The notes: generated from the sequence alone by a model not told the origin. A stretch of DNA of 64,000 nt from an uncultured Nitrososphaerota archaeon (GCA_964518475.1 CAZFGR010000005.1:1-64000), one strand, 5' to 3'; shown: positions 10,417 to 37,963, counted from the first letter of the stretch. Numbers and translations: made by a program.

Positions 10417-10417
10417 C

Positions 10418-11449
10418 TTATCTCTTAGCATTCTTAACTATTAATGGATGAATCCTTAGTGGAGTCTCTTCATTCCATAAAAGAGCAACTCTTGCTCTCT
10501 CCACTTTGTCAACGTATTTATAACCCGTAAGCTCTGCTAATCGTCGAGCAAAGGTGTCGATATCATTCATTGATGGTTGAGCAGTTCTGGGTAGCCTATC
10601 TCTAGATCTCCCTACCCATGTATATCCCTTTATTTCAATGAACGATGGCTGTGCGATTTCTATAAGTTTGGCGTATCCCTCGGGATTCACTAAGTTCAAT
10701 TCCTTAACAGCTGTAATTCTTATCACTGTGCGTATCTCAAGTGATGAGAGTATTTCTAATGTTTTTAGGAGATTATTCCATTGTTCCTTAGCGTTCCATA
10801 AGGGACGAGTTACGGTTGCCCATGTTTTGTAATCAGGGCCTACTAGGCTTATGTATAACTGCGTTGGTAGTGTGTGCATATTTTCCAAAGTTTTGGGGAA
10901 AGTACCATTAGATACGATGAAAGTGGTCATTCCTTTATTCTTGGCTATTTCCATTAGATCATCAATGTATGGATACATCAGGGGTTCCCCATCAAGGGAG
11001 GTTGCTAAATGCTTGGGTCCTAGCATTGCTTCCTTCCACATATCAAGATCGGTTTTCGATCTATGCTTTGGGTCGTACCCTTTCAAGATTCGGAAATAAG
11101 CCTGAATCACATTCTCTATCAATTCCTCGGGATCATCCCAAGGTACCTTTCGGAGGTCACCTTTGAAAGGAGGTAAGCCTATATCCATTCGATGAAGTCT
11201 CCAACAGAACAGGCAGCTAAGGTTACACTCGAGTATAGGGGTCCATTGGATGCATCTATGCGTTGGTATTCCATAAAACCAATACTTATAGCACATTATT
11301 CTATCAGTTAGGGCGGTCTTAAAGTAATAACATGGTTTATATCCAGCTAATCTACCAACTAATTGATATCCCATTCTCTTAAACGTGTCCAGTAATGGCT
11401 GTGGTAAGGGAGTCTCCATTAAAAATTTCTTTTCTTCTACTGTACTCAT
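10418..11449 (-). CDS. taw1: 4-demethylwyosine synthase Taw1/TYW1 (radical SAM)
   Basis: KPC..., CYKYWFYGIPTHRCIQWTP, CNLSCLFCWR (CxxxCxxC), GEPLMYP, TTFIVSNGTFP, TQLYISL, FIEIKGY. Confidence 0.95.
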   Translation of the reverse strand: MSTVEEKKFLMETPLPQPLLDTFKRMGYQLVGRLAGYKPCYYFKTALTDRIMCYKYWFYGIPTHRCIQWTPILECNLSCLFCWRLHRMDIGLPPFKGDLRKVPWDDPEELIENVIQAYFRILKGYDPKHRSKTDLDMWKEAMLGPKHLATSLDGEPLMYPYIDDLMEIAKNKGMTTFIVSNGTFPKTLENMHTLPTQLYISLVGPDYKTWATVTRPLWNAKEQWNNLLKTLEILSSLEIRTVIRITAVKELNLVNPEGYAKLIEIAQPSFIEIKGYTWVGRSRDRLPRTAQPSMNDIDTFARRLAELTGYKYVDKVERARVALLWNEETPLRIHPLIVKNAKR

Positions 11450-11641: not shown

Positions 11642-12655
11642 TTAGGATAAATGTTTTGACCAGAAATCGTATGGGGAAATGTCTACTAAATCCTTAGCAA
11701 AGTGGCAATATACGATCGTTTCATTGATAAGTAAAGGAGATGGCTCAGTTTTTCTACAAATTTCTTTTGCTATGGGGCATCTAGGGTGAAATCTACACCC
11801 GTTGGGGGGATTTGATGGATCGGGTGGGTTACCAGGTATCCATATTAGTCCATACTTCTTCTGTTTCCTGATCATTCTTGGCAAGGGAATAGCCCCTATG
11901 AGACCTTTAGTATATGGATGAATCGGGGTTTTGAAAATATTTTTAGCTGGGGCTATCTCTACTATCTTACCCCCATACATTACAGTGATTCTGTCGGCTA
12001 TTTCAATCATTCTAGCCAAGTTATGCGAAAAGTATAGCAAGGTAACGTCATACTTCTTCTTGAGTCTTATTAAAAGATCGATTAGCGAGGCCTGCAAAAT
12101 TGTATGCAATCCAACAAATGGCTCATCAGCAATTACTAGTTCTGGTCTTGTTGATAATGCTAGTGCAATTTTTACTCTCTGAACCATTCCCGTACTGAGT
12201 TCATTAGGAAGCGTTATTATATGGCTGCGTCCCAATTCTACGTCCTTAAATATTTTCTCGGTCATTTCGAGTGCTTCACTGGTATCCTTCTCAAGATGAT
12301 ACTCAATGGCCTCAGCTACTTGAATTCCAGAGAGCATTAATGGATTAAGGGTCTCGTGGGTTCCTTGAAGAATTATTGAAATAGATTTTTGCCTAATTTT
12401 ACGCATTTCCTCTTCTGGCAATTCTAAAAGATTTTTCCCGTGAAACAAAATTTTTCCACTTATTACTTCTGCATTACTGGGAAGAATTCTAAGAATGGTC
12501 CTAGCTAGGGTAGTCTTCCCACAACCCGATTCTCCAGTTATTCCTAAGATCTCACCCGAGAACACTTTAATCGTGATTCCATCAATAGCTCTTACCACAG
12601 CCCCCCTTTGATGATAATAAACTTTTAAATCAATAATTTCGAGAAGAGGACGCAA
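11642..12655 (-). CDS. Oligopeptide/dipeptide ABC transporter ATP-binding subunit (OppD/DppD-like)
   Basis: GESGCGKTT, LSTGMVQRV signature, IADEP, HPYTKGL, GCRFHPRCP..C C-terminal domain. Confidence 0.92.
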   Translation of the reverse strand: MRPLLEIIDLKVYYHQRGAVVRAIDGITIKVFSGEILGITGESGCGKTTLARTILRILPSNAEVISGKILFHGKNLLELPEEEMRKIRQKSISIILQGTHETLNPLMLSGIQVAEAIEYHLEKDTSEALEMTEKIFKDVELGRSHIITLPNELSTGMVQRVKIALALSTRPELVIADEPFVGLHTILQASLIDLLIRLKKKYDVTLLYFSHNLARMIEIADRITVMYGGKIVEIAPAKNIFKTPIHPYTKGLIGAIPLPRMIRKQKKYGLIWIPGNPPDPSNPPNGCRFHPRCPIAKEICRKTEPSPLLINETIVYCHFAKDLVDISPYDFWSKHLS

Positions 12656-12831
12656 ATAGACACCTATAATCCACTACACATACTTAGCCGAATACTGTTG
12701 TAAAGATGTTTTCACTGAGATAACTTTTCATTAGTATTATAGAGTTTTTATCTTCATAGGATAAGTGAAGTAGTTTTCAAAGAAGAGTTATAAAGAATAA
12801 AAATTAGTGAAAGAAATTGTCAAGGACTAAA

Positions 12832-14229
12832 CTATTTTCTTTCTAGGTAATAGAATACTAGACCAATTAGTAGGACTATTAATGTTGTTAACCAGACGAT
12901 CCAGTCCAGGAAACTTGTTAAGATAAACATTAGTGTTAGAAGCGCCGCTATTGCTGATAGAATCGGGAAGTTTTTGATCGATAGTGGTATTCGGAATTTT
13001 CTTGGATGATTTGGTTTTGTGTACCGGAGAACTATTACGCTGATGTTCACTACTATGAATGCTATTAAGCAAGATAATGATGCGGTCTTACCAACTAAGT
13101 CTATGAGCTCATATTCAACATTACCAACAACTACTTTCCATCCAGTAATCATTGGAACGTAGAGAGTTATTAAAACTACAAGAACAGATATTATGCCAGT
13201 CACTGCAACAGCGATATAAGGGGTTCTGCGCCATCTATCAACTTTAGATAGTTTCTTATAGAGTACACCTTCAGAAGCTAACCCATAAATTAGTCTCGAG
13301 GAAGATACGAGGAAACCTAGTATAGTATTTGTTGTCGAGAATAACGCTATTGCCATTAGAACGAGATACGAACCGGGCCAAGCAGCTCTAGCAGCATCAG
13401 CTAAGGGAGCTTTAGAGTCTCGTAGTACATCCCAAGGAAGGAGTTTTACGACGGCTAAACTCACTAATAGGTACAGTAGAGAGCAAATCAAGAGAGCAAG
13501 TATTATCGCTTTAGGTACTGTTCTTTCTGGATCTTTAGCTTCTTCACTGAGAGTTGGTTGAAGCTCGAAGCCAGTAAATGCGAAATAGAAAACTGCGGCC
13601 CCCAGCATAACTGCTAGAAATGGATTAAATCCGGTTGGTATGTGTAGGTACTGAGGTTCGCGTTGAGGAAGAAGGAATCCAAGTGTTGCTACGAGGACAA
13701 GTCCTCCCGCCTCTACTATTGTAAAAATCAAAGTCAGAAGCGCTGACTCTTCTATTCCCCACCAGTTAATAACGGATAGCAGAATAATCATAATTATAGC
13801 AATCCAAGGAATCATCATTTCCGTCAAGTATGGGAATCCAGGGGCATTAATAGAGTCTATAAGTGAGACAAAGTACCTAGCAAAGCCTATCGCGGCAGTA
13901 GCAGCTCCAGCTATTCCTTCAAACGCAATAAGCCACCCAGCGACGAATGCTAGGGTAGGTATCTTAGGGAAGGCCTCTTCTACATATTTATGGGTACTTG
14001 ATGCAAAAGGATACATGGAAGCCAGTTCAGCATATGATAATCCAGTTGTCAATGCTATCAGTGTAGCAAAAAGTACGCTAACCCATACTGCATCGCCGAC
14101 AAATGCGGCAGCGCGTCCTATAAGAACGTAAATTCCAGCTCCTAAGATCAATCCTACGCCAAAAAATGTTGTGTAGCCGAGACCTAGTGCTCGCTTTAAG
14201 GAAGTCTCTCCACTACTAGATTCGCTCAT
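12832..14229 (-). CDS. APC-superfamily amino acid permease
   Basis: LKRALG..GVGLILGAGIY, SYAELAS, FAFTGFE..SEEAKDPERTVPKA, RTPYIA; about 12 TM segments. Confidence 0.92.
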   Translation of the reverse strand: MSESSSGETSLKRALGLGYTTFFGVGLILGAGIYVLIGRAAAFVGDAVWVSVLFATLIALTTGLSYAELASMYPFASSTHKYVEEAFPKIPTLAFVAGWLIAFEGIAGAATAAIGFARYFVSLIDSINAPGFPYLTEMMIPWIAIIMIILLSVINWWGIEESALLTLIFTIVEAGGLVLVATLGFLLPQREPQYLHIPTGFNPFLAVMLGAAVFYFAFTGFELQPTLSEEAKDPERTVPKAIILALLICSLLYLLVSLAVVKLLPWDVLRDSKAPLADAARAAWPGSYLVLMAIALFSTTNTILGFLVSSSRLIYGLASEGVLYKKLSKVDRWRRTPYIAVAVTGIISVLVVLITLYVPMITGWKVVVGNVEYELIDLVGKTASLSCLIAFIVVNISVIVLRYTKPNHPRKFRIPLSIKNFPILSAIAALLTLMFILTSFLDWIVWLTTLIVLLIGLVFYYLERK

Positions 14230-14382: not shown

Positions 14383-15624
14383 TTATTGAATGTCTAAGAC
14401 TATGAGTGGGGTTTCTAGTTCCTCCTTCGAGATACCTCCATGAGAACTTCTAAATTCACGTGAGTAGTAGCCAATATCCTCTAAAATGCTCTCTTTTTTC
14501 TTCTTTTCCTTCGAGATATCAACATGATTTCTGGGTAGTATTATTAACTGTCCAGCTCTCTTAGCAAATTTTTCATAAATTTCATCAGATAACGCTGGCC
14601 AGAAACCTAGCTTTACAGCTTCCTCAAGAGTTAGAATATCAGTATCTTCTGTCCCTAGTATATCCTCTAACATAGCCTTTACGTTATCTATTTCATTGTT
14701 GCTTGTGTAAACGAATGCGAATCTTCCAGATTGCTGGATATGTATTCCTTTTTCCTGAAGTTCATTCATTTTTTCTTCGGAGATCTTTATGATTTTCTTA
14801 AGCTCTGTTTGGCCGTGATCACTCGTTATTATTATCTTAATCTTGACTCCTAATTCTTTGGCTGTTTTTTCTAGGAGTTTTATCAGAGCGTCTATGGCTT
14901 CGTTATGGAAATTAATAGTAAGTTTAAGAGCGTCCGAAGCGCCAAAGATATGGCCTACAGAATCTATGTCTGCTGAATACGCTATCAGTAACCCTGGAAG
15001 ATTTCTCTTATGTAATTGCCTTATTATTTCTGGAATGGAGTAAACAAGATCTGCAATAGTTGCGCAAGGAACGCCTACAGTATTTTCCTCATAAACATGT
15101 CTTAATCCTCCCTCAAGCTCTTTCGGATATAAATCGACTACCACCAGTTTCTCTTGAGGTATTGCGTGATAGACTGGTAGATGCCAAAGAAAACTAGATA
15201 ATCTGACTCCGATTTGAGCTAATGCATCTCGAAAACCGGTTCCTGGGACTTTTCCGGAAAGTATATCAATAAAATTCCCTATTTGAGGGAGATAGAATTT
15301 CGTAGCGATAATTCCGTGCATCTCTGGTGGGAGGCCTATGTAGAGCGAAGCTATTGCGTTACTAGTTGTTGTTGGTACCACGGAACACAGTTTCATCTTT
15401 CCGCTCTTCTTCCAGAGCTCTTCTAGCATGCCTTGTAACTGAGTAATAGCTAATGCGTCTATGATGAATAAAACGACGTAATCGGTTTCCTCAAATTTTT
15501 TCCTATATGTTCTCTTATCTAAGATCCACTCACTATAAGGCTCTTCAATATCAATTTTCAGGCTTTCTGAGATTATGGTTGGCAATAATCGAAAGAGCCC
15601 AATTGAATAATCGGGCTTTTGCAA
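14383..15624 (-). CDS. Alkaline-phosphatase-superfamily nucleotide pyrophosphatase/phosphodiesterase
   Basis: LFIIDAL, SVVPTTT, GLPPEMHGI, DSVGHIFG, ITSDHG, SHGGISKEELETPL. Confidence 0.85.
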   Translation of the reverse strand: MQKPDYSIGLFRLLPTIISESLKIDIEEPYSEWILDKRTYRKKFEETDYVVLFIIDALAITQLQGMLEELWKKSGKMKLCSVVPTTTSNAIASLYIGLPPEMHGIIATKFYLPQIGNFIDILSGKVPGTGFRDALAQIGVRLSSFLWHLPVYHAIPQEKLVVVDLYPKELEGGLRHVYEENTVGVPCATIADLVYSIPEIIRQLHKRNLPGLLIAYSADIDSVGHIFGASDALKLTINFHNEAIDALIKLLEKTAKELGVKIKIIITSDHGQTELKKIIKISEEKMNELQEKGIHIQQSGRFAFVYTSNNEIDNVKAMLEDILGTEDTDILTLEEAVKLGFWPALSDEIYEKFAKRAGQLIILPRNHVDISKEKKKKESILEDIGYYSREFRSSHGGISKEELETPLIVLDIQ

Positions 15625-27890: not shown

Positions 27891-30059
27891 CTATTCTCTT
27901 ATTACATGTATTAATTCATCAATCTCCCTTACTTTATCGGTGTATCCCTCATGGAACCAGATTCTCCTAGCGTTTTCTAAGGATAGCAATGCAAGCTTCT
28001 TAACGACTTCGTCGTCTCCAAATTTTCTGAGATAACTAGCACTCGCTTCACCGAGACGCTCAAAAGCAATCGTCGCCTCGAATGGATTTTCCTTTAGATC
28101 TCTAATAATAACGGTTGAATATTTCTTAAGTAGTTGTAGCCCATATAGGCATAGTTTCCTATCATCAGAATACTTTATACATGCTAAAACAGCGTCAGCA
28201 AGATCATCGATAAACTCTCTCGTGACCTCTCTCTTGTGAATATCTCTTTCACCGATTTGATCAAATATCCTAAGTATATCTTCTAAAATTCTTGCTCGGA
28301 TTCCGGGAGCTTGAATATGCCTGATTATTGGTAAGAAAGCCATAAGAGTGTTTAAGTAAAGAGCTCTGTTTATATCTCTCTCATTGTTTATTTCATTACG
28401 GATTTCTGGAGGGATAAATGCTATTTGGCGTAAATAACTTATTATCTCATCAGATTGTGTACCAAGCCGAAGCATTGCTTTGGAGAGAACGAAGATTATT
28501 GGAGATGACAACGTAAGGAATCTATAATAGGATATTCTGCGACGAGCCCATAGGCGAGCAAAGAATAATAATCCCTCTTGCGCAATTCTTAGAGCATGCT
28601 CCCACATTTCCTTCGCTTTTTCTTTTGTTACGAACATTGTCGAATAATATATAATGTGGAGAAGTAATTGGTAGAAATTGAAGTATGCGCGTATTTCTAG
28701 TGGTGGCATTTCTCTCATAATATTGTACGCATCCTCTATCGCTACCCGATAACTTTCTTCAATAAGCAAGTGTCTATCTTTAATCGATAATCCATAAGAC
28801 TCCATGGCTGCCATGCTTATCAGGAGGTAAGGTATTATTCTTGAAAGAACGTAGTAACTAATTTCTATAATCTTTTCACGATTCAACATTCTGAATATAG
28901 GTAACCGTCGCTTAAGCAATTCATGGAAGCGCTTTTTCATTTTAAGGTAAGCTGTTTTTATCTCTGCTAGATCCTTCTCTATATCAGACCAATTCTTGGT
29001 AGTGTAAAGGATCTGGAAGAGATCATTTACCTTATACGTTGAGTTTAAATATTCATAGAGGTACGAAGATTTTTCTTTGAAAATCTTTAATAGTCTTTCT
29101 CCGAGTGGACTATAGATTACGCTTCTCCCAGTAGACATTAATAAGAATGCATAGATGCTGCGTAGAATATCGTCCTGGGTATTATCCAAGATTTTCACTA
29201 GTTCGTCGATGTTTTCTCTTATAAATTTTAGCCACTCAGAGGGCCTATCTTCTAAAAGATTCAAAATCTCTAATTTCACAAATTGTGCCAGGAGATCCTT
29301 TTCCTCCTCCACTTTTTTGAGAAAGTCCTTGATCACCTCTGTTGGTATTACTGGATGGTTGTATGGAAGCATTCGTGTTAACAGACCTATTTTTATTGCT
29401 AATAATGTACCTAGAGACGACTTCTCTAGATCACTTGTTGCCAATGAGTATGCTATATCATAACCAGCTATTAGGTCCCATGAGTAAACTTTATCGAGAA
29501 TATTTTTGAGTGCTTCCTCAGCAGACTTAATAGTGATTTTGCGTGGTTTATGAACGAGTTTCTTCTCTTTTAATTCCTCCTCTTTAATTAACTTATTGAT
29601 GGTTTCCTCTGTTTTCATGATTATCTCGGGTGGTAAATTTCCGTAAATTACTTTAGCTATATCAACGACACTATCGAAGTAAGGCATTTCGACTGGTTTT
29701 TCTTCTAAGAAAGAATCTAGAAGCTTCTGAACTTGTTGCTGAATATCATCTGTAACAATCTCAGTTCCCGGAGGAATAACGTCTATTATCTTAGATAATA
29801 GTTCCCTAGCTCTTAACTCGATTGAGGGGTCTTCAGTATCACTTGCTACAGCTACAATAACATCTGGATTTATTGTGCTTGATACAACATAGATTTTCCT
29901 CCCGCTTAGTTCTAGGCTTCTTAATCCTCCCTCAGCCAAGGCCTCTGATAAACCCAGTGCTGCCGCCATTAAAGAAGAAACCAAGGACTGAGCATTTTCG
30001 AATCCTTTTTGGGCGATTAATAATCCAGACTTAAGCATTACCAAGACTCCTTGGATCAT
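27891..30059 (-). CDS. Longin-like N-terminal domain + long alpha-solenoid protein
   Basis: MIQGVLVMLKSGLLIAQK..LVSSLMAAALGLSEAL..GLRSLELSGRKIYVV..VIVAVASD gives the beta-beta-alpha-beta-beta-beta-alpha longin order; about 600 helical residues follow. ATG 30059 has SD GGAGAG. Confidence 0.65.
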   Translation of the reverse strand: MIQGVLVMLKSGLLIAQKGFENAQSLVSSLMAAALGLSEALAEGGLRSLELSGRKIYVVSSTINPDVIVAVASDTEDPSIELRARELLSKIIDVIPPGTEIVTDDIQQQVQKLLDSFLEEKPVEMPYFDSVVDIAKVIYGNLPPEIIMKTEETINKLIKEEELKEKKLVHKPRKITIKSAEEALKNILDKVYSWDLIAGYDIAYSLATSDLEKSSLGTLLAIKIGLLTRMLPYNHPVIPTEVIKDFLKKVEEEKDLLAQFVKLEILNLLEDRPSEWLKFIRENIDELVKILDNTQDDILRSIYAFLLMSTGRSVIYSPLGERLLKIFKEKSSYLYEYLNSTYKVNDLFQILYTTKNWSDIEKDLAEIKTAYLKMKKRFHELLKRRLPIFRMLNREKIIEISYYVLSRIIPYLLISMAAMESYGLSIKDRHLLIEESYRVAIEDAYNIMREMPPLEIRAYFNFYQLLLHIIYYSTMFVTKEKAKEMWEHALRIAQEGLLFFARLWARRRISYYRFLTLSSPIIFVLSKAMLRLGTQSDEIISYLRQIAFIPPEIRNEINNERDINRALYLNTLMAFLPIIRHIQAPGIRARILEDILRIFDQIGERDIHKREVTREFIDDLADAVLACIKYSDDRKLCLYGLQLLKKYSTVIIRDLKENPFEATIAFERLGEASASYLRKFGDDEVVKKLALLSLENARRIWFHEGYTDKVREIDELIHVIRE

Positions 30060-30113
30060 ATATGCTCTCTCCAAGTAATCATGAACATATATAAGGCACT
30101 ATAACATTTCTCC

Positions 30114-30210: not shown

Positions 30211-30579
30211 GTGATTCATTGTATTCCAGTGAAAAATAAGTACTTAATGATGATCGCAAAGGGCAAAAAGAGAATAGAAATTCACATATTTTCTAGAGCG
30301 TTAAAAAAGATAAAACCAGGAGACATTCTCTTACTATTTGATGGCAGAGCAAATATTGTTAGAGCTATAGTTAAGGCGGTAAGGATTTATGATTCCCTAG
30401 AATCTCTACTGAAATCAGAGAATTTTAAAGAAATTCTACCAACAGCTAAAAGTGTGGAGGATCTCATAAAAGAGGTAGAAAAAATATACTGGATGATCGA
30501 TAAGAACGAACTACACGAGAAAAAGTTTATTGCTATAGAACTGGATGTGATTGATTTCATAGAGGGAATTAAAAGGTAA
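30211..30579 (+). CDS. ASCH/PUA-superfamily domain protein
   Basis: YLMMIAKGKKRIEI (GxKxxE), IKPGDILLL, VRIYDSLESLL..E, IY, FIAIEL. Confidence 0.85.
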   Translation: MIHCIPVKNKYLMMIAKGKKRIEIHIFSRALKKIKPGDILLLFDGRANIVRAIVKAVRIYDSLESLLKSENFKEILPTAKSVEDLIKEVEKIYWMIDKNELHEKKFIAIELDVIDFIEGIKR

Positions 30580-30600: not shown

Positions 30601-33600
30601 TTAGTCACACTTAATAATTATCCTTATACGCATTTTATCCCTGAGCCTCAACAGTTTCGAAACGAGGTTCCTGAGATCTTCCTCACTATAGTCATCTCCA
30701 AGCATCTTTTTGGCAATCTCCTCAAGATAATACTCTCTCTTCCTTCTTTCAGAGAGAATTCTAATCAATTCTAGAGTTATTGGATCCGCGTATTTAGTTA
30801 ATAAATCCTTTAGTTGATGAAATATTTCCTCTAACTCTTTTTCCGCCTTTATGAGATTTTTCTCATTTTCCACAAGCGTTTTTAAATCTCTGAAACGATG
30901 TTTCAAGCTCTCAAAAGTTCTTATATCTTCATTACTAAGATCCTGAATCGGTACCTTCTCTAGCCATTCGTGGATGCTTTGAATATATTTCCCGCATTTC
31001 CTTCTTCTATCATTCTTCTCCTTTTCAAGCTTATCTATGAGAAAAGTTACTTTCTTTGCAAGATCTTTTAATGCTTGAAGATTATTTGAAAAGAAATTTT
31101 CGAGAGAGGTTAATTCAGGGGAACTTGTAATTGTTTCAACGAATTCCTGTAGTAGTTTCATCATAGCCTGATAATAATTCTCAAGCAAACGGTATTCGTC
31201 ACCTATGTTTTCTCTAGCATACTGGTCACTTAATGAATCTATACTAGTACTCATGGTTTTTGTTTTTTGGGCAAGTTTTTCGACGAAAGTAAGAGCATCC
31301 TTAATATTGTAAAGTTTTTCTCTTGTTGCTTCAGCAATTTTCTCAATAGCTCTTATAGCCTGAAGTGCTTTACCTAATTCATCTATCTCTTGGCCGAATT
31401 GGGGGGAAGAAACATATAATGTAAAATTCGTATATGAGGGAGCCCGCAATGTTTTCAGGATACTTTTTATAGAACCCTCGATATCGCTTCTTAATCTCTT
31501 CACACCGCTTAACAAGGAATAAATAACTCGCTGAATTTCTCTTCTATCTCTTTCTATCCCCTTCACAATCTCTTCAAAGCGATTATATATTTCCATTATT
31601 TTCAAGTACTTCGGATTGAAGAAATAAGCCTTTTCTAATATTTTCTCATCTCCAATCTTGTAGTATCTAAAATCAAACAGGTCTTTAATACTAATGTCCT
31701 TGGTTCGGGAGTATTCTTCGACTAGTTTTCGTGCCTCCTCTACAGAAATTCGTTTTTCAAAAGCTTCTTTTGCCTCGATTAATAAATTTTCTAGCAGTAT
31801 CTCTTCTTGGAAGGGTTCTATAACTCTGAGTCCAATACCTCTCAAATCACGAGAAATGTTCTTAAGGAGTTCTCGAACATGCCTCATTTTCACGGATATC
31901 TTATCTATTAATTCGCTAGAGCGTCTATACGCGATATTCGCTAACTTGATGTACTCCTCAGCTATTCCCAATAATCTAAGTGCGGCAGATAATTGTCGAG
32001 CCTTATTCATTTCATCCAAGACATTGACGGCTGAGTTTCTGAGATAAATTGCTAATTCCAATAACTTATCTATTGAGATCACTCTATACTCTCTTTCCTT
32101 TGCAACAATAAATATAGAGAATGTTCGCCATATCGGATCCCGGTGCTCTATTTGTTTCTCAATATTCCTCAGCTTTTTATTGAAGGACTCTAAGAGTTCG
32201 CCAAGAGATATTTTCTCTATGTATACCTCATCACCTTTTTTAACGTACCTAATCAATCCTTTTCTCTCTAAGGTAGAAAGAAATATGGTCTCCAGCAACG
32301 TCTCTGCTCCGCGTTCAATAATGAAGAATTCCTTCACCGACCTTAGAGAACAACTTTTTCGAGATAAAATTTGGAGAATCAGTTCCTCTGCAGGAGAATT
32401 TCTTACCTGCACAAATTCCCCTACCCTCTCTAAGAACTTAGACTCGATGAGATAGTTCTCTAATTCTTTCAGTTTATCTTTACTCTCGATGTCAGCTCCA
32501 CATAATAGATCCCTACGTTTCCACCCATAAAAGAACTGCGACTTAACGTGTTGCGTGACCCACTCAAATACTTCATGAGTTTTCATAAGTTGTTTGGGGT
32601 ATACCAAGTAGTAATCATAAACGCTGGGTAATGCGGATAAGCTTGGAGACTTGCTCCAAGGAGGCTGTAATATAATTAAGCCTCTACGAAGCCCCTCCTG
32701 AATGATTTTTTCCTCGAATATTTTTCTAGGGTTGTGGTCATATCTTCTTCGTACACGGTTAAGGATTTCAAACATTATTTCTTTATGGATATTTGAGGCG
32801 CATTTCTGCACTATTTTCCTTATGCCGTACATAATAGCTATATCAACTGTGTGGAGAGGAAGTACTACTATTAGGTTATTCATATCTGCTTTCTCAACAA
32901 TCTTCTTTGCATAATCATACAGATCCTCTTTAACGAATAGCATTACTATCGGTATTTTTTCGAGGAGACCTTCTCTTTCAAGAATCTTTAGAGCCTCAAT
33001 AACGTGTCCTCTAAGCAGTATAGCTACTGGAATAAATCTTAATGGGATATCTCTATTACCGTATCGCCAGATTTTCTTCACAACGAATTTATCTAAGAGA
33101 TAGTCGGCTTCGTTGAGCAGAAATTCCTCCATTATTAGAGGTAACATCGCCTTTCCAAGTTCGAAAAAATCATAATCCCCGCCCGTCACTTGCCTCAATG
33201 TTTCGCGCCAAATAGTTAATGCTAAGTTTTTATCATCTATTAAATCGCAAATAGGGCAGGGAGGAGGATAAATATCGTTTAAGATACAGGGGTTCAAAGA
33301 GTATAAGATTTCCTCCGAAGGCTCCGTTTTTTGCCTTAGAATATCCAATACTTGTTTTATCAGAATTTTATGTTGGGGATATATTGAAGCGAGATAGTTC
33401 TCCAAGACCCTCCTAGTTAAGTCGTCTGCAGGAACTAACAATTTCTTTCTTAGTAATTTGTTGTCGAGTGTAAACTTTGTAAGTTTTTTTAAGATTTCCT
33501 CAACTACGTCTTTCCAATCATCAATAGCCTGCTCAAATACTTCTTTAAGAAATTCTTTGAAAAAGTCCTTAAGTTCAATAGCTTTGAAACGCAGTATAGG

Positions 33601-34794
33601 ATTTTGGATCATATTCGAGAATTTTTCCTCAATAACTTCAATGCAGGACTTACAAATATTTAATGGTAAAGAAGTGAGTGATGAGATTTCTTCTAGAGTA
33701 GCGGGGACCGCGAGTACTACTAGTGCCTTTAAAGTCTTCTCTAACCATTCTTTTTCCTTCTCTGAGGAGCCTTCAGTTACTAGGTTAATGTAAAAACTCA
33801 ATGAGCCATCACTGATGAGGTCTATCTTGATTTCACCGATTTCTTCAAGCATTATTCCTTTCATAGAGATTAGTAAATCTTCGCTAGAAGCTACTGGTAT
33901 GCTATTGTTTTTTCTTTTCGATAATAGGTTTGACAATAAGTTATTTAAGACAGCAACAAGATATCCAGGATAACCGCGTGTGGCTAGGTAATATGCATCA
34001 AAAACCGAGATAGTTGGTATGGGAAGAACGTCGGGAAGAGAACCCGCGTAAAGATATTCCAGGCAACCTATAAGAAAGAGATATGTTTCTTCTCGATTGA
34101 GCGGTCTCATCTCTATAGCTTGTACTCGCCGCAAGTGTCGGCCAATTGTTTCCACTAAGGAGGAATCGGAGAGAAACTTAGCCTTTGCTTGAGGTGTTAA
34201 GGAGAGAATTATATGGAGGGTTCCTCGGAGGTCTCCTTTTTTAGAGAGCGGTTGAAATTCACCATTCACTAGACCTACTAATCCATCGATAAATGTAAAC
34301 GTTATTTTAGAGCTCATGCCCAGGATGCTTTCGAATTCATCGAGGAATACTACTAGGAAGCGTTTCTTAGTCTTATGTAGAATAGTTGAAAGAAGTTTCT
34401 CAGTGCGAATATGTCTTGGTACGCGAATTCTCAATTTTTTACAGATAGTTAGTAATAGAGCCTTTAATGTTCTCTCAGCAGAGAAGAGAGGTGCCTCTGC
34501 TAGTTTCTCGAAGAAAGCCATTACATCACTTGTTTTTAAGATTATAGAAAAGCCTTCTTTTTCCTTTACAAGAGGTTCTAGAAAAGCTTTATAGCTAGCT
34601 GTCTTGCCGACCCCCCATTCACCAATTATGGCTAATAACTTCACTTCATTAGAAGCTAGAGCGGATTCGATAAATTCATCATACTGTGACCTGATCATGC
34701 GCCAAAACGGGAGATCTATGTGTTTGCTCAACTCTAAAGCATCCTGACCCGTAATGGAGGGGAGAGGATTTTTCCACATAGGCGCGTATCCCAT
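30601..34794 (-). CDS. Large P-loop ATPase (AAA+/STAND-like N-terminus) with winged-helix-like and coiled-coil regions
   Basis: Walker A GEWGVGKT (aa 58-65), Walker B VVFLDEFE, GRHLRR, ATRGYPG (GxP), several wHTH-like segments, CPIC, long heptad-rich C-terminal third. Confidence 0.8.
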   Translation of the reverse strand: MGYAPMWKNPLPSITGQDALELSKHIDLPFWRMIRSQYDEFIESALASNEVKLLAIIGEWGVGKTASYKAFLEPLVKEKEGFSIILKTSDVMAFFEKLAEAPLFSAERTLKALLLTICKKLRIRVPRHIRTEKLLSTILHKTKKRFLVVFLDEFESILGMSSKITFTFIDGLVGLVNGEFQPLSKKGDLRGTLHIILSLTPQAKAKFLSDSSLVETIGRHLRRVQAIEMRPLNREETYLFLIGCLEYLYAGSLPDVLPIPTISVFDAYYLATRGYPGYLVAVLNNLLSNLLSKRKNNSIPVASSEDLLISMKGIMLEEIGEIKIDLISDGSLSFYINLVTEGSSEKEKEWLEKTLKALVVLAVPATLEEISSLTSLPLNICKSCIEVIEEKFSNMIQNPILRFKAIELKDFFKEFLKEVFEQAIDDWKDVVEEILKKLTKFTLDNKLLRKKLLVPADDLTRRVLENYLASIYPQHKILIKQVLDILRQKTEPSEEILYSLNPCILNDIYPPPCPICDLIDDKNLALTIWRETLRQVTGGDYDFFELGKAMLPLIMEEFLLNEADYLLDKFVVKKIWRYGNRDIPLRFIPVAILLRGHVIEALKILEREGLLEKIPIVMLFVKEDLYDYAKKIVEKADMNNLIVVLPLHTVDIAIMYGIRKIVQKCASNIHKEIMFEILNRVRRRYDHNPRKIFEEKIIQEGLRRGLIILQPPWSKSPSLSALPSVYDYYLVYPKQLMKTHEVFEWVTQHVKSQFFYGWKRRDLLCGADIESKDKLKELENYLIESKFLERVGEFVQVRNSPAEELILQILSRKSCSLRSVKEFFIIERGAETLLETIFLSTLERKGLIRYVKKGDEVYIEKISLGELLESFNKKLRNIEKQIEHRDPIWRTFSIFIVAKEREYRVISIDKLLELAIYLRNSAVNVLDEMNKARQLSAALRLLGIAEEYIKLANIAYRRSSELIDKISVKMRHVRELLKNISRDLRGIGLRVIEPFQEEILLENLLIEAKEAFEKRISVEEARKLVEEYSRTKDISIKDLFDFRYYKIGDEKILEKAYFFNPKYLKIMEIYNRFEEIVKGIERDRREIQRVIYSLLSGVKRLRSDIEGSIKSILKTLRAPSYTNFTLYVSSPQFGQEIDELGKALQAIRAIEKIAEATREKLYNIKDALTFVEKLAQKTKTMSTSIDSLSDQYARENIGDEYRLLENYYQAMMKLLQEFVETITSSPELTSLENFFSNNLQALKDLAKKVTFLIDKLEKEKNDRRRKCGKYIQSIHEWLEKVPIQDLSNEDIRTFESLKHRFRDLKTLVENEKNLIKAEKELEEIFHQLKDLLTKYADPITLELIRILSERRKREYYLEEIAKKMLGDDYSEEDLRNLVSKLLRLRDKMRIRIIIKCD

Positions 34795-34800
34795 TATACA

Positions 34801-36456
34801 TCACCTAGAATTCTTCCTTAAGTAACTGGATAAATCCGTGGAACCTATCGTAGGCTCGATCTCTCTCCGAGGAACTCTTACCAATAAGGGAAAGGGAACA
34901 GGGAGGATCTGACCACTAATGACGAGGGTGCCGGTCTCTAAATTGGGCAGTTTTCTGAGAATGCTTTCTGGTAGTCCTCCTAGAGCTCTCCGTACATAAT
35001 TTATATCATCTGGGGCTATTCTATGAATAAAGTAAGAATTCATCATAGAGAAAACTATAGGATCAACAAATGATGGCCTCTGAGTAACTAATACCAATCC
35101 CAAGCCAAATTTTCGCCCTTGGGTCGCTATTAAGGCAAGGTTTTCTCTAGCGATACTTGATCCTACTGGGTAAGTATCTAGGTTCGGGCAGTAATTCTGG
35201 GCTTCTTCTATGATAAGTAGAGCATAGCGGGTACCTATGTATCCATTTTTTGTCGCGACAGCACCGATCTTATACTCAACGAATCTGTTGTATAAGAGTT
35301 TGGTTAAATACGCAACTACAAACTGTTTCATCTTAAGAGAGATGCCGGTGGCACCGTCTGTGGAGAAATCAATTATAACCATTAAGCCATTTTCCGTTAA
35401 TTCATCAACGAAATTATAATTAAGTTTCGCTGCGCTTTCAGAAAATGGAATTATGCCTGCTTTGAGAAGATCGTTTCTGAATACTCGTAAAGCTCTCTTA
35501 GCAGCCTCCTTGGTCTGGCGGTGAGCTTCGATGGACTCAATAGTTCCCAAAATAATACTCTCGAATTGACTATCATCGTAAAAAATGGCATTAAAATCCC
35601 GATAACCCTCTTTTCTCAGCTTCTCAAATAATGTTTCGAGAAGAGATGCTTGTAACTCGCTCCGTGAAACGCTTCCGTAGTACTCGAGAATCGCTTCGGC
35701 TAGGTCTCTAGGATCCAAGATATTTAGATCGATCGCTATAGGTATAGAATTCTCATCTGTCATCCCTGCTAGGGATTTAGGAAATACTAATCGAAGAATA
35801 TTTGAAAAGCGCGGTAAGAATTCTCCATGTTTAAAGGCGAAATAATAATCAAGATAATCTCCATTAGCATCGATTATCACCATGGGAAAAGCTATCTGAC
35901 GACCATTCACATCTACTTTAGAGAGTTTTTCGATAAGATAGCCAACAGTGTAGGATTTTCCGCTACCAGTTACTCCTAGTATAGCTATGTGCATCGGTAA
36001 ACTTTCAATACGAAGAGGAACTGGAGCATTTAAGTAGCCATATAATGAGCCAAAAGAAATGTATACTTCGTCTCGCTTCAAGGCCGCGAAAATCTGATCG
36101 GGTTTTTCCAGTAAATATACATAATCTCCAGGTGTAGGAGGATAGGGGACATCATCAAGTCTAGGAAGAACACCTAATAAATCGAGCCGACAAATAACAT
36201 ATCTTCTAGCAACATTAACTGGTATTGGTCTATTTTTTCTTCTAGCTTCACTCCAGACATCGCCTACTTCAAAAAACTCGTTGTATGTCTCAATCTTAGC
36301 TATACGTGCCAGAATACTTTTTTCGCCCTGAGATAAAGCAGTTTTCACCAAAACAAGCATTCCTTCATGGATTTTCCCCTCGGCTTCCTCAAGTATTTGG
36401 CACGTCGCTGTGGTAGTTGTGGCGCCAGAAAGTATGATGCCAATAGCATGTTTCAT
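34801..36456 (-). CDS. herA: HerA/FtsK-superfamily ATPase (HerA helicase/translocase) with HAS barrel
   Basis: HAS barrel ending PYPPTPGDYVY; HIAILGVTGSGKS; IIDANGDY; IIEEAQNY; QGRKFGLGLVLVTQRPS. Confidence 0.93.
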   Translation of the reverse strand: MKHAIGIILSGATTTTATCQILEEAEGKIHEGMLVLVKTALSQGEKSILARIAKIETYNEFFEVGDVWSEARRKNRPIPVNVARRYVICRLDLLGVLPRLDDVPYPPTPGDYVYLLEKPDQIFAALKRDEVYISFGSLYGYLNAPVPLRIESLPMHIAILGVTGSGKSYTVGYLIEKLSKVDVNGRQIAFPMVIIDANGDYLDYYFAFKHGEFLPRFSNILRLVFPKSLAGMTDENSIPIAIDLNILDPRDLAEAILEYYGSVSRSELQASLLETLFEKLRKEGYRDFNAIFYDDSQFESIILGTIESIEAHRQTKEAAKRALRVFRNDLLKAGIIPFSESAAKLNYNFVDELTENGLMVIIDFSTDGATGISLKMKQFVVAYLTKLLYNRFVEYKIGAVATKNGYIGTRYALLIIEEAQNYCPNLDTYPVGSSIARENLALIATQGRKFGLGLVLVTQRPSFVDPIVFSMMNSYFIHRIAPDDINYVRRALGGLPESILRKLPNLETGTLVISGQILPVPFPLLVRVPRREIEPTIGSTDLSSYLRKNSR

Positions 36457-37580
36457 GAGGTTTCACCAAAATGAATCAAGTTCCTTATATTTAGAAGATC
36501 GTCCTCCTCTCCAACCAAACTGGCTAATCGAGATAAGGCCTCAGAGAATACTAACTGAGCAGCCCTTTTCCGGATTAAACAAGAGTAGTGAGCCAGATAT
36601 ATCGGAAGAGGAATACTCATCCCTGGCGAAATCCATTGGAAAATATATTGAAGTATTGCATGGATATCCTCATCATCTGAGGCTAGAATCTCGACCCGGA
36701 AAGGTCTATGAGCATAGCCGGCTTGTGCAAAACTCGTCCATATCCTAAATTCATAACCCTTCTTCGAGAATTCCGAGGCGTATACTTTGAATGCTGAACT
36801 CAGTCTTTCACCGTTTTCCTCCGCTATCAAGATAGGGTTGGTGAATAAGCCCACTTCTAGCGGAAATTTTCCAAGTTTATAAATAGTATTAAAGAGCACT
36901 GGCACAACATCTTGATCCGTTAAGTCATGCTTGATAGAGGACATACTGGCTATTACTGAAGAATTAAAACGCTTAACAATACCAACGATTATTGTTTCTC
37001 TTCTCAAGCTCTCGACAAGATTATCTACTCGTTTCCTAACGTATTCCTTATCGATTAAATCTGGGGGATCTATTATAGGTCCATCGATGAATATTAAACG
37101 AGCTCCCTTCTGAGAGGCCTCATTTATTAACATGCTCTCTCTTAATAACATATTTGTAATGACGACTTTTTCAGGATCAATTCCTAGCTCTTCCTTTATT
37201 CTCTCAACAAAGACGTGCACGTTTATTTCTGGGTGACGAATGCTTTCAAGTCCTTTATCAAAAAAGACTAGTGATAAGCCGATAAGACCAAGAAATCTGT
37301 GACCCAAACTCCTAGTAATATAAAAACTCCCATCAACACCACAGACGGATCCGGGAAGAATTATCCTCTTATCCACTGGTACGAATCTTAATAATCCATT
37401 TTTAATGAGTTTAGAAGCTGTATCTTTTACTTTTCGTAGATCACTATAAAGTCTTTTAGCTTCTCTATGAGCATAAGCAACTAACTGAGCTAGTAAGTCA
37501 GGATACATTTTTTGAATCTCTATCCTGCCCATCAGCTTATCTTCTTCATCCTCTTCTGAGCGATACGACGGAATAGTCAA
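36453..37580 (-). CDS. nurA: NurA-family 5'-3' nuclease
   Basis: CGVDGS, LRE, IFIDGP, VGIVKR, FRVE, IPLPIYLAH; ATGA overlap with herA. Confidence 0.88.
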   Translation of the reverse strand: MTIPSYRSEEDEEDKLMGRIEIQKMYPDLLAQLVAYAHREAKRLYSDLRKVKDTASKLIKNGLLRFVPVDKRIILPGSVCGVDGSFYITRSLGHRFLGLIGLSLVFFDKGLESIRHPEINVHVFVERIKEELGIDPEKVVITNMLLRESMLINEASQKGARLIFIDGPIIDPPDLIDKEYVRKRVDNLVESLRRETIIVGIVKRFNSSVIASMSSIKHDLTDQDVVPVLFNTIYKLGKFPLEVGLFTNPILIAEENGERLSSAFKVYASEFSKKGYEFRIWTSFAQAGYAHRPFRVEILASDDEDIHAILQYIFQWISPGMSIPLPIYLAHYSCLIRKRAAQLVFSEALSRLASLVGEEDDLLNIRNLIHFGETS

Positions 37581-37687
37581 TAAATCACCAATAGCATCTC
37601 TCAGAAGAACGAGGTGTAGAATATTACGATTTATAAGGAGTAATAATATGAGGAAAATAAAATCAAAAATGCGGAGAGATTGAAATC

Positions 37688-37963
37688 TTATAATTTGTAT
37701 TTATCGAGGAGCTTCTTTATTTCTTTCAATGCCTCATACGCTCGCTCATCCTTTATTCCGCTTACGATTGTCTTCGCTAATACTTTATGAACATCGCTTA
37801 TTTCGGGAATCTTTATAGGTATTGATGCCAACCCTATTTTCTCAGCCATGCTTTTTACTAAGTCATTAAGGGTGAGTCCTGACTGCTTAATTATCTCAGC
37901 TATTACGTTCTCTAATACTTTCTTCGCCTCATTTATCTCTAATTTCTTCTTGAAAAGCCCCAT
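37688..37963 (-). CDS. Small basic helical hypothetical protein
   Basis: 91-aa ORF with SD AGGTG. Confidence 0.65.
   Translation of the reverse strand: MGLFKKKLEINEAKKVLENVIAEIIKQSGLTLNDLVKSMAEKIGLASIPIKIPEISDVHKVLAKTIVSGIKDERAYEALKEIKKLLDKYKL

Follow-up and report, generated by a model that had tools for sequence, protein, structure and literature searches.

HerA-NurA is seen as the motor of end resection in archaea, and the question raised here is what such a pair does when its genes are coupled to one for a giant ATPase. The locus lies in a 64,000-nucleotide stretch of DNA (the window) from a Njordarchaeota MAG (Asgard archaeon) that is 91% complete. The initial annotation had proposed a second, non-canonical HerA-NurA machine in which a large ATPase senses DNA ends or foreign DNA and loads or licenses the nuclease-helicase, in defence or alternative repair. 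On the minus strand, nurA, herA and the giant gene are co-oriented and tightly coupled, and the ORFs were found at exactly the coordinates first claimed:

37628..37635 (approximate), minus strand: TATA-like box TTATAAAT upstream of nurA, about 48 nt 5' of the TTG, by direct sequence reading; function putative
36453..37580, minus strand: nurA, NurA-family nuclease, 375 aa from the TTG (Pfam NurA, E 1.9e-10)
34801..36456, minus strand: herA, HerA/FtsK-type hexameric DNA translocase, 551 aa (DUF87, E 2.7e-26)
30601..34794, minus strand: giant gene, 1397 aa (weak AAA_22 match only, aa 53-162)

The three genes form one operon. GGTGA stands 5 nt 5' of the nurA TTG start, for which an ATG at 37532 is an alternative, and the sequence confirmed both of the junctions described earlier: the nurA stop and the herA start overlap in ATGA, and the herA TGA stop, spanned by the Shine-Dalgarno-like AGGTGA, is followed after 6 nt by the ATG of the giant. 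The TATA-like element, placed earlier at 37630-37637, is present, but its position was off by up to 2 nt. An upstream ORF of 91 aa (37688-37963) is common only to the closest relative and was therefore left out of the module. The neighbours of the triad in the window are housekeeping genes (ThrRS, LysRS, FEN1, transporters), and neither an integrase nor a tRNA gene was seen near it there.

The genome carries three herA/nurA sets, namely the triad, a set on contig C13 and a third herA-nurA pair. The search for a separate canonical locus located mre11-rad50 on contig C13, about 10 kb from the C13 nurA/herA set, and in congeners the C13-type herA lies directly beside rad50. As first claimed, the window holds no rad50: there was no Rad50-like match within it, and the only AAA_23 matches of the contig are weak and fall at 78 and 89 kb. 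Because mre11-rad50 lies near another nurA/herA set and a third pair exists, the triad is an extra, non-canonical HerA-NurA machine beside ordinary repair genes, in agreement with the initial proposal. Its herA and nurA are thus not to be taken as the DSB-repair genes of the organism. The canonical HerA-NurA-Mre11-Rad50 system shares with the triad the DUF87-core HerA, the acidic active site of NurA and the overlapping genes; however, mre11-rad50 is linked to another paralogue and not to the triad, and the canonical system lacks the 1397-aa Orc-like ATPase.

The phylogeny proposed as a check sets triad HerA apart from the housekeeping paralogues, and in the tree it forms a clade of its own (100/100 support, long stem) separate from all paralogues. 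Against the NCBIfam models, triad HerA reached 79-88 bits for the repair HerA equivalogs (cut-offs 800-970) and 64-84 bits for the antiphage HerA models (cut-offs 800-850). Sir2-HerA and DUF4297-HerA resemble the triad in using a HerA hexamer as effector platform or motor in defence, but the triad has neither Sir2 nor DUF4297, and the effector here would be NurA, whose fold is RNase H-like and not REase.

The catalytic motifs of both proteins are intact, as the initial annotation had it. In NurA, D83, E148 and D166 are at least 90% conserved among 20-26 triad homologues, and the same level holds for D83/S85, E148 and D166-G-P in 21 triad NurAs. For HerA, conservation among 20-26 triad homologues is 90% or more at Walker A (G161-S168), at Walker B (I416-E418) and at Q446-K449/R460, with Walker A, Walker B and the Arg residues invariant in 19 homologues.

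The giant, read at first as an AAA+/STAND-like ATPase distinct from Rad50/SMC, was divided into the following predicted segments:

33922..34794, minus strand: aa 1-291, N-terminal helices and Orc1/Cdc6-type AAA+ core with lid (Walker A 58-65, Walker B 150-155, R223)
33079..33921, minus strand: aa 292-572, winged-helix-like modules and helices, to the end of the N module (model secondary structure)
32485..33078, minus strand: aa 573-770, alpha/beta domain and helical linker (AF2 model m1a6372941ae9, pLDDT 81.5)
32020..32484, minus strand: aa 771-925, three tandem winged-helix domains (AF2 model m1a6372941ae9; VIA-align matches)
30784..32019, minus strand: aa 926-1337, long antiparallel coiled coil and helical bundles (50-60-residue helices in the model)
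30601..30783, minus strand: aa 1338-1397, small C-terminal helical domain and stop codon (model)

According to its model, the N half is an Orc1/Cdc6-type AAA+ ATPase with winged helices. The top Foldseek matches of this part (AF2 model m0b92dc923749, pLDDT 84.9) were Cdc6/Orc1/ORC subunits and TnsC, with E values from 2e-8 to 1e-5 and a probability of 1.00, and the profile search with the N half gave weak TnsC and Cdc6 matches. Thus, the AAA+ part of the earlier reading stood and was narrowed to the Orc1/Cdc6/TnsC type, whereas a classical STAND assignment did not. Both Walker motifs, GEWGVGKT (58-65) and DEFE (152-155), are N-terminal, and W60, G61, G63, K64, D152, E153, E155 and R223 are invariant in 24 sequences. 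In the test for an Orc1/Cdc6 initiator, the giant gave weak AAA_22/AAA_16 Pfam matches only, without Cdc6_lid/Cdc6_C membership, and it exceeds the initiators of about 400 aa by about 1000 residues. Rad50/SMC was rejected, as first argued, since there is no SMC_N or AAA_23 match or other SMC/ABC family match, Walker B is not C-terminal and the fold is AAA+. A zinc hook at CPIC (aa 513-516) was also rejected because the motif is conserved among Njord copies only.

The models place about five to six winged-helix DNA-binding modules after the AAA+ core. The C half contributes an alpha/beta domain, further winged helices and a coiled coil of some 400 residues. VIA-align matched aa 771-925 to MarR/ArsR-type wHTH domains (Z about 8.5, rmsd 1.5 A over 62-64 residues), whereas the alpha/beta domain (aa 573-705) had no significant PDB match in Foldseek or VIA-align and aa 926-1337 matched only coiled coils and helical bundles. 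Across the C half, Foldseek and VIA-align returned only generic wHTH and helical bundles, and searches of the whole protein and the N half against PDB sequences yielded only coiled-coil noise and the weak TnsC/Cdc6 matches. Conserved positions outside the ATPase core include the DIES motif at 768-771, with D768 and K899 invariant, an FxF...FNxK motif at about 1040-1062 within the coiled-coil region, and the invariant L1381. Some relatives carry the giant in pieces: L039 (549 aa) and L063 (599+883 aa) have the gene split where the N module ends, and in L052 the C-terminal 300 or so residues (from about aa 1130 onward) are encoded by an ORF of their own. Complex prediction for HerA with giant residues 720-1100 gave a score of 0.00, run with no controls and counting as evidence neither way.

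The triad recurs well beyond this genome. The giant family is nevertheless rare: a search of 1.84 billion representatives with its N-half profile recovered 208 clusters at E<=1e-30. In about 24 of 35 loci, spread over many phyla, the giant accompanies nurA-herA, so the suggested linkage of the large ATPase to the pair holds elsewhere. At least nine archaeal lineages and four bacterial phyla carry the triad, and the order nurA-herA-giant occurs in Njordarchaeota, Korarchaeia, Archaeoglobales, Hydrothermarchaeota, Thermoplasmata, Aenigmatarchaeota, Bathyarchaeia, Desulfurococcales and the four bacterial phyla; many carriers are hyperthermophiles. Its distribution is patchy, as had been suspected, with the giant in 9 of 400 Asgard genomes. 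Adjacent herA/nurA are lacking for the giant in Ignicoccus pacificus and in some Desulfurococcales. In the HerA tree, Bacillota and Chloroflexota sequences are nested among archaeal ones within the triad clade, which points to horizontal transfer.

This transfer, together with one locus that adjoins an Orc1/Cdc6 gene and an integrase and a weak match of triad HerA to the DNA-translocating ATPase CedD, would suit a mobile-element or DNA-transfer module for the processing, import or partition of plasmid or virus DNA, in which HerA would do the pumping and the giant would be an Orc-like initiator specific to the element. We consider this highly improbable: the CedD score is 71 bits, far below the cut-off of 600, no other mobile-element genes recur by the triad, no capsid, relaxase or partition genes were seen, and the context in the window is chromosomal and housekeeping. 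The expected association with defence islands was found in part, as the surroundings of some loci are of a defence or mobile kind (Shedu SduA, a tyrosine integrase, a ResIII helicase), but those of the triad in the present window are not.

The neighbours that do recur are restricted to TGT, DUF5591 and DUF6884. A PUA-less, DpdA-like TGT and an ArcS-core protein (DUF6884 in bacteria) lie next to the triad in 14 or more loci. Their positions around the triad vary, and the two genes are often translationally coupled downstream of the giant in the same cassette. The cassette TGTs consist of the barrel alone, retain the DSGG and DS..WR motifs and do not correspond to the ArcS N domain; they scored 22-54 bits against the DpdA models (cut-off 200) and 66-112 bits against archaeal TgtA (cut-off 350). 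The cassette DUF5591 (PF17884) proteins lack a PUA domain and keep the ArcS motif C-x3-KPY-x2-S, and hhalign aligned the DUF6884 found in bacterial cassettes to these proteins (60%, E 9e-5). In other Asgard genomes, TGT-like genes lie beside HerA/NurA and other AAA+ proteins of 1185-1388 aa, or beside AIPR/Mrr.

Since the triad recurs beside enzymes predicted to write 7-deazaguanine, its most likely role is that of the cutting arm in R-M-like immunity; the joining to a PUA-less TGT and an ArcS core points to such a system and not to simple DNA-end sensing. On this gene-based evidence, we put at about even the chance that the triad is the restriction (nuclease) arm of a mostly archaeal, 7-deazaguanine-linked R-M-like defence system. 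The giant would bind double-stranded DNA through its winged helices, assemble on it in an ATP-dependent manner as ORC/Cdc6 and TnsC do, and then recruit or license the HerA hexamer-NurA dimer, which would thread and digest the DNA. In the fuller module of the 14 or more loci, the TGT and the ArcS core would, by prediction, place preQ0 in host DNA and turn it into an archaeosine-like base, and the giant would spare marked DNA and target unmarked invaders. The complete immune system, in which TGT and ArcS core write an archaeosine-type 7-deazaguanine into the chromosome and the giant reads that mark through its winged helices and loads HerA-NurA to destroy unmarked DNA, is a more tentative proposal, and we would not yet bet on it.

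The present genome complicates the modification side. Its TGT-like/ArcS-core pair lies on contig C18, unlinked to the triad, as is also the case in most congeners, and its TGT-like copy scored 19 bits in the test for a DpdA-type enzyme. The Njord copies lack the CxCPxC...H zinc site, and QueC was not detected in this 91%-complete MAG. With the pair unlinked, the zinc site lost and QueC not found, the triad here may act without a mark or with a salvaged precursor. The ArcS core on C18 is the only ArcS-like gene of the genome, so the pair could simply represent a tRNA archaeosine synthase in split form. The genomes of the genus that have the TGT-like gene are precisely those that have the giant.

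Several observations speak against defence and for the main rival to the R-M-like reading, a second housekeeping machine for DNA-end processing or recombination. Here the giant would tether and load as Mre11-Rad50 does, for a special substrate such as stalled forks or lesions, and the neighbouring TGT and ArcS-core genes elsewhere would be a coincidence or a sign of joint regulation with tRNA modification. In the window, housekeeping genes surround the locus, for which reason alternative repair may apply here, and the triad is found in six of the seven genomes of the genus. It diverges there about as the canonical HerA and Rad50 do, like a vertically inherited core function: identity is 53-32% for the giant and 47-36% for Rad50, and 76-57% for triad HerA and 71-48% for canonical HerA. 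Rapid divergence of the giant as a sign of defence was ruled out, given that its identity within the genus matches that of Rad50. RadA, NucS and FEN1 lie near some loci, the coiled coil recalls SMC-like tethers, and the PADLOC scan for a known defence system had a negative outcome, with no model matching the giant or NurA; PADLOC and NCBIfam together gave no named system for either. Nevertheless, the genome already has a canonical herA-nurA set and mre11-rad50, the distribution over Asgard genomes is patchy with clear inter-domain transfer, some loci have Shedu, integrase or AIPR neighbours, and TGT/ArcS-core or DUF6884 genes recur by the triad even in bacteria that make no tRNA archaeosine. 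We therefore regard the housekeeping machine as unlikely, though deserving serious attention.

The coupling of TGT and ArcS core to the giant within one cassette also fits a DNA-modification machine, in which the giant and/or HerA would power the transglycosylase as DpdB does for DpdA, NurA would trim intermediates, and the mark would guard DNA from other nucleases or from heat damage. DpdB is an ATPase. The formation of dPreQ0 in DNA in vitro requires DpdB in addition to DpdA (PMC10164549), and the many hyperthermophilic carriers would suit a protective mark. This reading is improbable, as the catalytic residues of NurA are kept across the family, HerA-NurA is to our knowledge a processive DNA-degrading machine in every studied case, the triad persists here and in most congeners without adjacent modification genes, and the Ignicoccus giant has no TGT cluster beside it.

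If the R-M-like reading is true, a dedicated HerA-NurA clade with an Orc1/Cdc6-like giant would give HerA-NurA a second biological role, an ORC-like AAA+ would serve as loader or sensor for a nuclease motor, and 7-deazaguanine DNA modification would reach beyond bacteria and viruses to the chromosomes of archaea. An R-M restriction arm would then be built from an ORC-like loader and the end-resection motor of archaea, in an immune system previously undescribed. The earlier statement that no functional description of the triad is known agrees with the literature covered, which leaves subscription journals outside: we found no paper describing the three-gene module and none joining NurA with TGT or deazaguanine. 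Asgard HerA-NurA homologues have been called completely uncharacterised (PMC13748450).

Among known systems, the bacterial 7-deazaguanine R-M system Dpd (dpdA-K, PMC10164549) resembles the module at the family level in its TGT without tRNA-binding domains and its second preQ0 enzyme, and further in its large ATPase/nuclease components and R-M-like logic. However, restriction there depends on DpdD-K instead of HerA-NurA and an Orc-like giant, the TGTs here reached 36-54 bits for the DpdA equivalog, well under its cut-off of 200, the second enzyme is an ArcS core or DUF6884, and the modification genes are unlinked in this genome. DpdB/DpdC and DpdD-K were absent among the recurrent neighbours, where the PADLOC scan gave no Dpd match but DpdA; an assignment of DpdC to the YaaA/DUF328 family was not confirmed in PMC10164549. 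Viral DpdA + ArcS2 pairs occur in Vibrio phage nt-1 and Sulfolobus virus STSV-2, and the phage pair was shown experimentally to make dPreQ0 and then dG+ in DNA (PMC10516641). They share with the cassettes a barrel-only TGT and a PF17884 protein reduced to the ArcS C1 core with the PC-x3-KPY-x2-S motif, whereas the genes here are cellular and joined to a nuclease machine, and the modification is predicted from genes.

The HerA/FtsK-Orc/Cdc6 capture systems (PMC10853773) likewise combine HerA/FtsK, an Orc/Cdc6 AAA+ and wHTH in one operon, and BRC (BREX-related capture) also recruits a TGT (PMC10853773, PMC12839542); both were predicted by comparative genomics and offer a precedent in concept for the R-M-like reading. 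Nucleases of the REase fold, PglZ, DUF6079, DUF4007 and GNAT belong to those systems; in contrast, the triad has NurA as its nuclease, a classical-type HerA and a distinct family of 1400-aa coiled-coil ATPases. Their Orc/Cdc6 protein also has an inactive REase inserted between AAA+ and wHTH; the giant had no REase family match in Pfam, and its alpha/beta domain at aa 573-705 carries no fold assignment. NurA has zero occurrences in PMC10853773 and PMC12839542. The giant matched no BrxC, DUF499 or DUF6079 model in Pfam or PADLOC at E<=0.01, and PglX/PglZ are absent among the recurrent neighbours of the triad. BrxC/PglY nonetheless resembles the giant as a protein of about 1200-1400 aa from an R-M-like system, whose N terminus has an Orc/Cdc6-like P-loop and whose tail is long, helical and DNA-binding, and the giant carries a weak structural echo of BrxA-like wHTH modules.

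ORF calling placed three genes on the minus strand of the window, at exactly the positions of the initial annotation, which had proposed a non-canonical machine joining nurA and herA to a giant ATPase. The features are the following:

36453-37580, minus strand: nurA, 375 aa from a TTG start (Pfam NurA, E 1.9e-10)
34801-36456, minus strand: herA, 551 aa (Pfam HerA central domain DUF87, E 2.7e-26)
30601-34794, minus strand: giant ORF, 1397 aa (weak Pfam AAA_22/AAA_16 match, residues 47-162)
~37628-37635, minus strand: TTATAAAT box, read from the sequence

The three genes are coupled as an operon, with the junctions first described: the nurA stop and the herA ATG overlap as ATGA, and six bases separate the herA TGA from the giant ATG, with AGGTGA across the herA stop. 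GGTGA lies five bases upstream of the nurA TTG start. The catalytic motifs, previously judged intact, proved to be so and to be conserved across homologues, comprising Walker A (G161-S168), Walker B (I416-E418), Q446-K449, and R460 in HerA, and D83/S85, E148, and D166 in NurA.

The two Walker motifs of the giant protein lie close to its N terminus, A (GEWGVGKT) at residues 58-65 and B (DEFE) at 152-155. The giant is not a Rad50 or SMC protein, in agreement with the initial annotation, which had excluded these families from the position of the two motifs. The protein fell outside every Pfam, NCBIfam, and PADLOC family except generic AAA. AlphaFold2 modeled residues 1-572 confidently from a 24-sequence alignment (pLDDT 84.9, pTM 0.84), and the best Foldseek matches of this half were archaeal Cdc6/Orc1, eukaryotic ORC/Cdc6 subunits, the Pyrococcus 'Walker-type ATPase' 2qen, and TnsC (E 2e-8 to 1e-5, probability 1.00); the sequence profile also gave weak matches to TnsC and Cdc6. 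Residues W60, G61, G63, K64, D152, E153, E155, and R223 are invariant, and the ATPase is presumably active. In the model of the C half (573-1397; pLDDT 81.5, pTM 0.62), an alpha/beta domain is followed by helices, then by three winged helices in tandem, long antiparallel helices covering about 400 residues, and a small C-terminal domain. The winged helices matched MarR/ArsR-type domains (Z about 8.5, rmsd 1.5 A). The C half had no significant whole-domain match in the PDB, and the ESM Atlas gave only faint resemblances to BrxA-like and wHTH proteins. Overall, the giant combines an Orc1/Cdc6-type fold with numerous winged helices and a coiled coil. A CPIC motif was considered as a zinc hook, which is unlikely because the motif is conserved only among the Njordarchaeota copies.

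A word-based search of 5.8 billion proteins recovered five relatives of similar length, each directly preceded by nurA-herA in the same orientation. With the N-half profile, 208 clusters passed E<=1e-30 in a set of 1.84 billion representatives, almost all of them about 1400 aa long. Full-length relatives with 15-25% identity came from scanning some 186,000 species genomes, a scan that also assigned the host to Candidatus Njordarchaeota within the Asgard archaea. The archaeal carriers are Ignicoccus pacificus, Desulfurococcales, Pyrodictiaceae, Korarchaeia (Methanodesulfokora), Archaeoglobales, Hydrothermarchaeum, Thermoplasmata, Aenigmatarchaeota, Bathyarchaeia, and Methanophagales, and the bacterial ones are MAGs of four phyla (Bacillota, Chloroflexota, Actinomycetota, and Cyanobacteria). 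The giant was found in 9 of 400 Asgard genomes and, within the host genus, in six of seven. By profile searches of the locus ORFs, about 24 of 35 loci have nurA, herA, and the giant in that order, the exceptions being mostly Desulfurococcales. Ignicoccus and two other loci have a giant with neither herA nor nurA beside it, a NurA-like gene follows the giant in L063 and L065, and the dedicated herA of Pyrodictium sits on a different contig from the giant. The giant gene is split after residue ~550-600 in two loci (L039 and L063) and after ~1125 in a third (L052), which marks domain boundaries.

In a maximum-likelihood tree, the HerAs adjacent to the giant formed one clade (support 100/100, stem of 1.52 substitutions per site); the long-branch caveats of this tree touch the outgroup paralogues and not the clade itself. 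All five other HerA paralogues of this genome fell outside the clade, as did the remaining HerAs encoded by Ignicoccus, Pyrodictium, and L045 (Thermoproteota). Branching within the clade departs from the organismal phylogeny: Bacillota and Chloroflexota HerAs sit amid archaeal sequences, and very short branches separate those of Archaeoglobales, Hydrothermarchaeota, and Aenigmatarchaeota. The module has therefore been transferred horizontally. Accelerated divergence of the triad within the genus was ruled out, as identities ranged over 76-57% for the triad HerA versus 71-48% for the canonical HerA, and over 53-32% for the giant versus 47-36% for Rad50.

The window belongs to contig C5 of the MAG (2.33 Mb, 91% complete), in which six DUF87 proteins are encoded along with three NurAs, and the triad does not comprise the only herA and nurA of the genome. 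Contig C13 carries a nurA-215aa-herA set some 10 kb away from a pair of mre11 and rad50 genes (Metallophos; AAA_23 plus SbcC_Walker_B), and the same type of herA lies within 1.5 kb of rad50 in two congeners, which identifies the C13 set as the canonical one for repair. Yet another herA-nurA pair, the third, is on contig C29. Consequently, the triad is an additional HerA-NurA machine, as the initial annotation had supposed. It might be a second machine for repair, a reading that we consider unlikely. In the C13 set (L018 3912-7404, minus strand), an overlapping 215-aa ORF with no Pfam match stands between the canonical-type nurA and herA.

When all flanking ORFs of the 35 loci were clustered, only two families besides the triad were recurrent, a TGT-superfamily protein (340-410 aa) and a DUF5591 protein (175-340 aa). 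The order nurA-herA-giant-DUF5591-TGT, with the pair directly downstream, occurs in Archaeoglobales, Korarchaeia, Hydrothermarchaeum, Thermoplasmata, Bathyarchaeia, and L048. The pair is upstream and divergent in a second Bathyarchaeia locus (L068), shuffled in Desulfurococcales, and reduced to a TGT beside the triad, without DUF5591, in one Njordarchaeota congener; the Aenigmatarchaeota contig ends right after DUF5591. Bacterial loci have the TGT upstream of nurA, and there a DUF6884 protein takes the place of DUF5591 after the giant. Placement of the TGT and ArcS-core genes around the triad is therefore variable, whereas adjacency is constant. To our knowledge, bacteria make no tRNA archaeosine. 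This constancy, together with persistence in bacteria, argues for functional coupling to the triad rather than chance.

The cassette TGTs consist of the catalytic barrel only and are nearest to archaeal TgtA (66-112 bits), followed by DpdA (22-54 bits); an assignment to the ArcS N domain was ruled out, the match being faint (at most 25 bits). They retain the DSGG and DS..WR motifs, and most retain the CxCPxC...HN zinc site. Of ArcS, the DUF5591 proteins comprise the C1-core only, without PUA, and they keep the C-x3-K-P-Y-x2-S motif. DUF6884, which has a CxxxK motif (PMC11701544), aligned with the DUF5591 set at an hhalign probability of 60% (E 9e-5). In Vibrio phage nt-1, a pair of just this kind, a barrel-only transglycosylase and the ArcS-core protein 'ArcS2', was shown experimentally to insert dPreQ0 into DNA and convert it to 2'-deoxyarchaeosine (PMC10516641). 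A triad that assists such modification would be another reading, and we regard it as quite improbable.

In Asgard genomes without the giant family, TGT-like homologues adjoin HerA, NurA, and different proteins of 1185-1388 aa with an N-terminal AAA_22-type P-loop, which indicates that TGT, large AAA+, HerA, and NurA form a broader theme with several subtypes. One of these homologues has an AIPR/Mrr protein as a neighbor. Another Asgard genome (L106, G014:C13, locus positions 8690-11104) has a tandem pair of TGT-like genes (389 and 392 aa) near a 985-aa STAND/AAA_22-type protein, possibly a further subtype of TGT with a large ATPase.

No TGT lies downstream of the giant in the window, where a convergent ASCH gene and a gene for a Roadblock/longin-like protein of 727 aa are found instead. 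The pair is encoded on contig C18 (L086 6565-8531, minus strand), among NucS, nitroreductase, and rhomboid genes. Its TGT-like gene (375 aa) has 57% identity to the copy that follows the giant in a congener, and the DUF5591 gene (278 aa) comes immediately after. Within the host genus, the TGT-like gene occurs in exactly the six genomes bearing the giant and is missing from the seventh; this is weak evidence, since the genomes are related and offer just one informative contrast. The C18 pair could be a split tRNA archaeosine synthase, since it is the only ArcS-like locus of the MAG. The Njordarchaeota TGT-like copies have lost the CxCPxC...H zinc site, and QueC was not detected in the 91% complete MAG.

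Outside this genome, the cassette has defence or mobility genes as neighbors. In an Archaeoglobales MAG (L046), the five-gene cassette is flanked upstream by a Shedu SduA (SduA_C) nuclease gene (488-1642) and downstream by an Orc1/Cdc6 gene and a tyrosine integrase (11815-14108), which suggests that it lies within an integrated element or defence island. A ResIII helicase is encoded near the Korarchaeia cassette. A module that handles the DNA of mobile elements would be a third alternative, and we give it very little credence.

We class the finding as a putative restriction-modification-like, HerA-based defence module, with known parts in an undescribed combination. HerA6-NurA2 would be the usual DNA-threading nuclease, and the giant would bind duplex DNA, assemble with ATP as ORC/Cdc6 or TnsC do, and recruit or license HerA-NurA. 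Where present, the TGT pair would write a 7-deazaguanine mark that spares self DNA. We judge this joint mechanism, nuclease, loader, and self mark, to have about an even chance of being right. Published concepts closest to the module are the HerA/FtsK-Orc/Cdc6 'capture' systems predicted by computation, together with the BREX-related capture system, which recruits a TGT as well (PMC10853773, PMC12839542), the bacterial 7-deazaguanine restriction-modification system Dpd (PMC10164549), and the Sir2 and DUF4297 HerA systems. In contrast to these, the module has a NurA nuclease, a separate HerA clade, a separate family of 1400-aa ATPases, and an ArcS-core or DUF6884 partner. Asgard NurA homologues are described as completely uncharacterised in a 2026 review, which makes no mention of the triad arrangement (PMC13748450). 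Our literature search, whose scope was outside subscription literature, found no paper joining NurA with a transglycosylase and deazaguanine.

The window is otherwise ordinary chromosome, encoding ThrRS, class I LysRS, FEN1, MoCF, permeases, and a MacB-type ABC pair, with no tRNA genes in it and no integrase among the ORFs scanned. The remaining features are the following:

30211-30579, plus strand: ASCH (PUA-like) gene, 122 aa, convergent with the giant gene and ending 22 nt from it
27891-30074, minus strand: gene for the 727-aa protein, with a weak N-terminal Roadblock/LC7 (longin-like) match and a long unassigned tail
37688-37963, minus strand: 91-aa ORF, co-oriented with nurA and 107 nt upstream of it, with no family match
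14383-15624, minus strand: type I phosphodiesterase/nucleotide pyrophosphatase, 413 aa, with a weak PglZ-domain match (E 8.5e-6, 26 bits)

ASCH domains have been proposed to read modified bases, and a link of this gene to the module is no more than conceivable; the neighbor recurs in the locus of the closest relative (L024) and is absent from more distant loci. The 727-aa gene is syntenic in L024 (722 aa there), and the 91-aa ORF occupies the same position in that locus (88-363) and not elsewhere. The PglZ-domain match of the 413-aa protein is probably mere alkaline-phosphatase-superfamily similarity.
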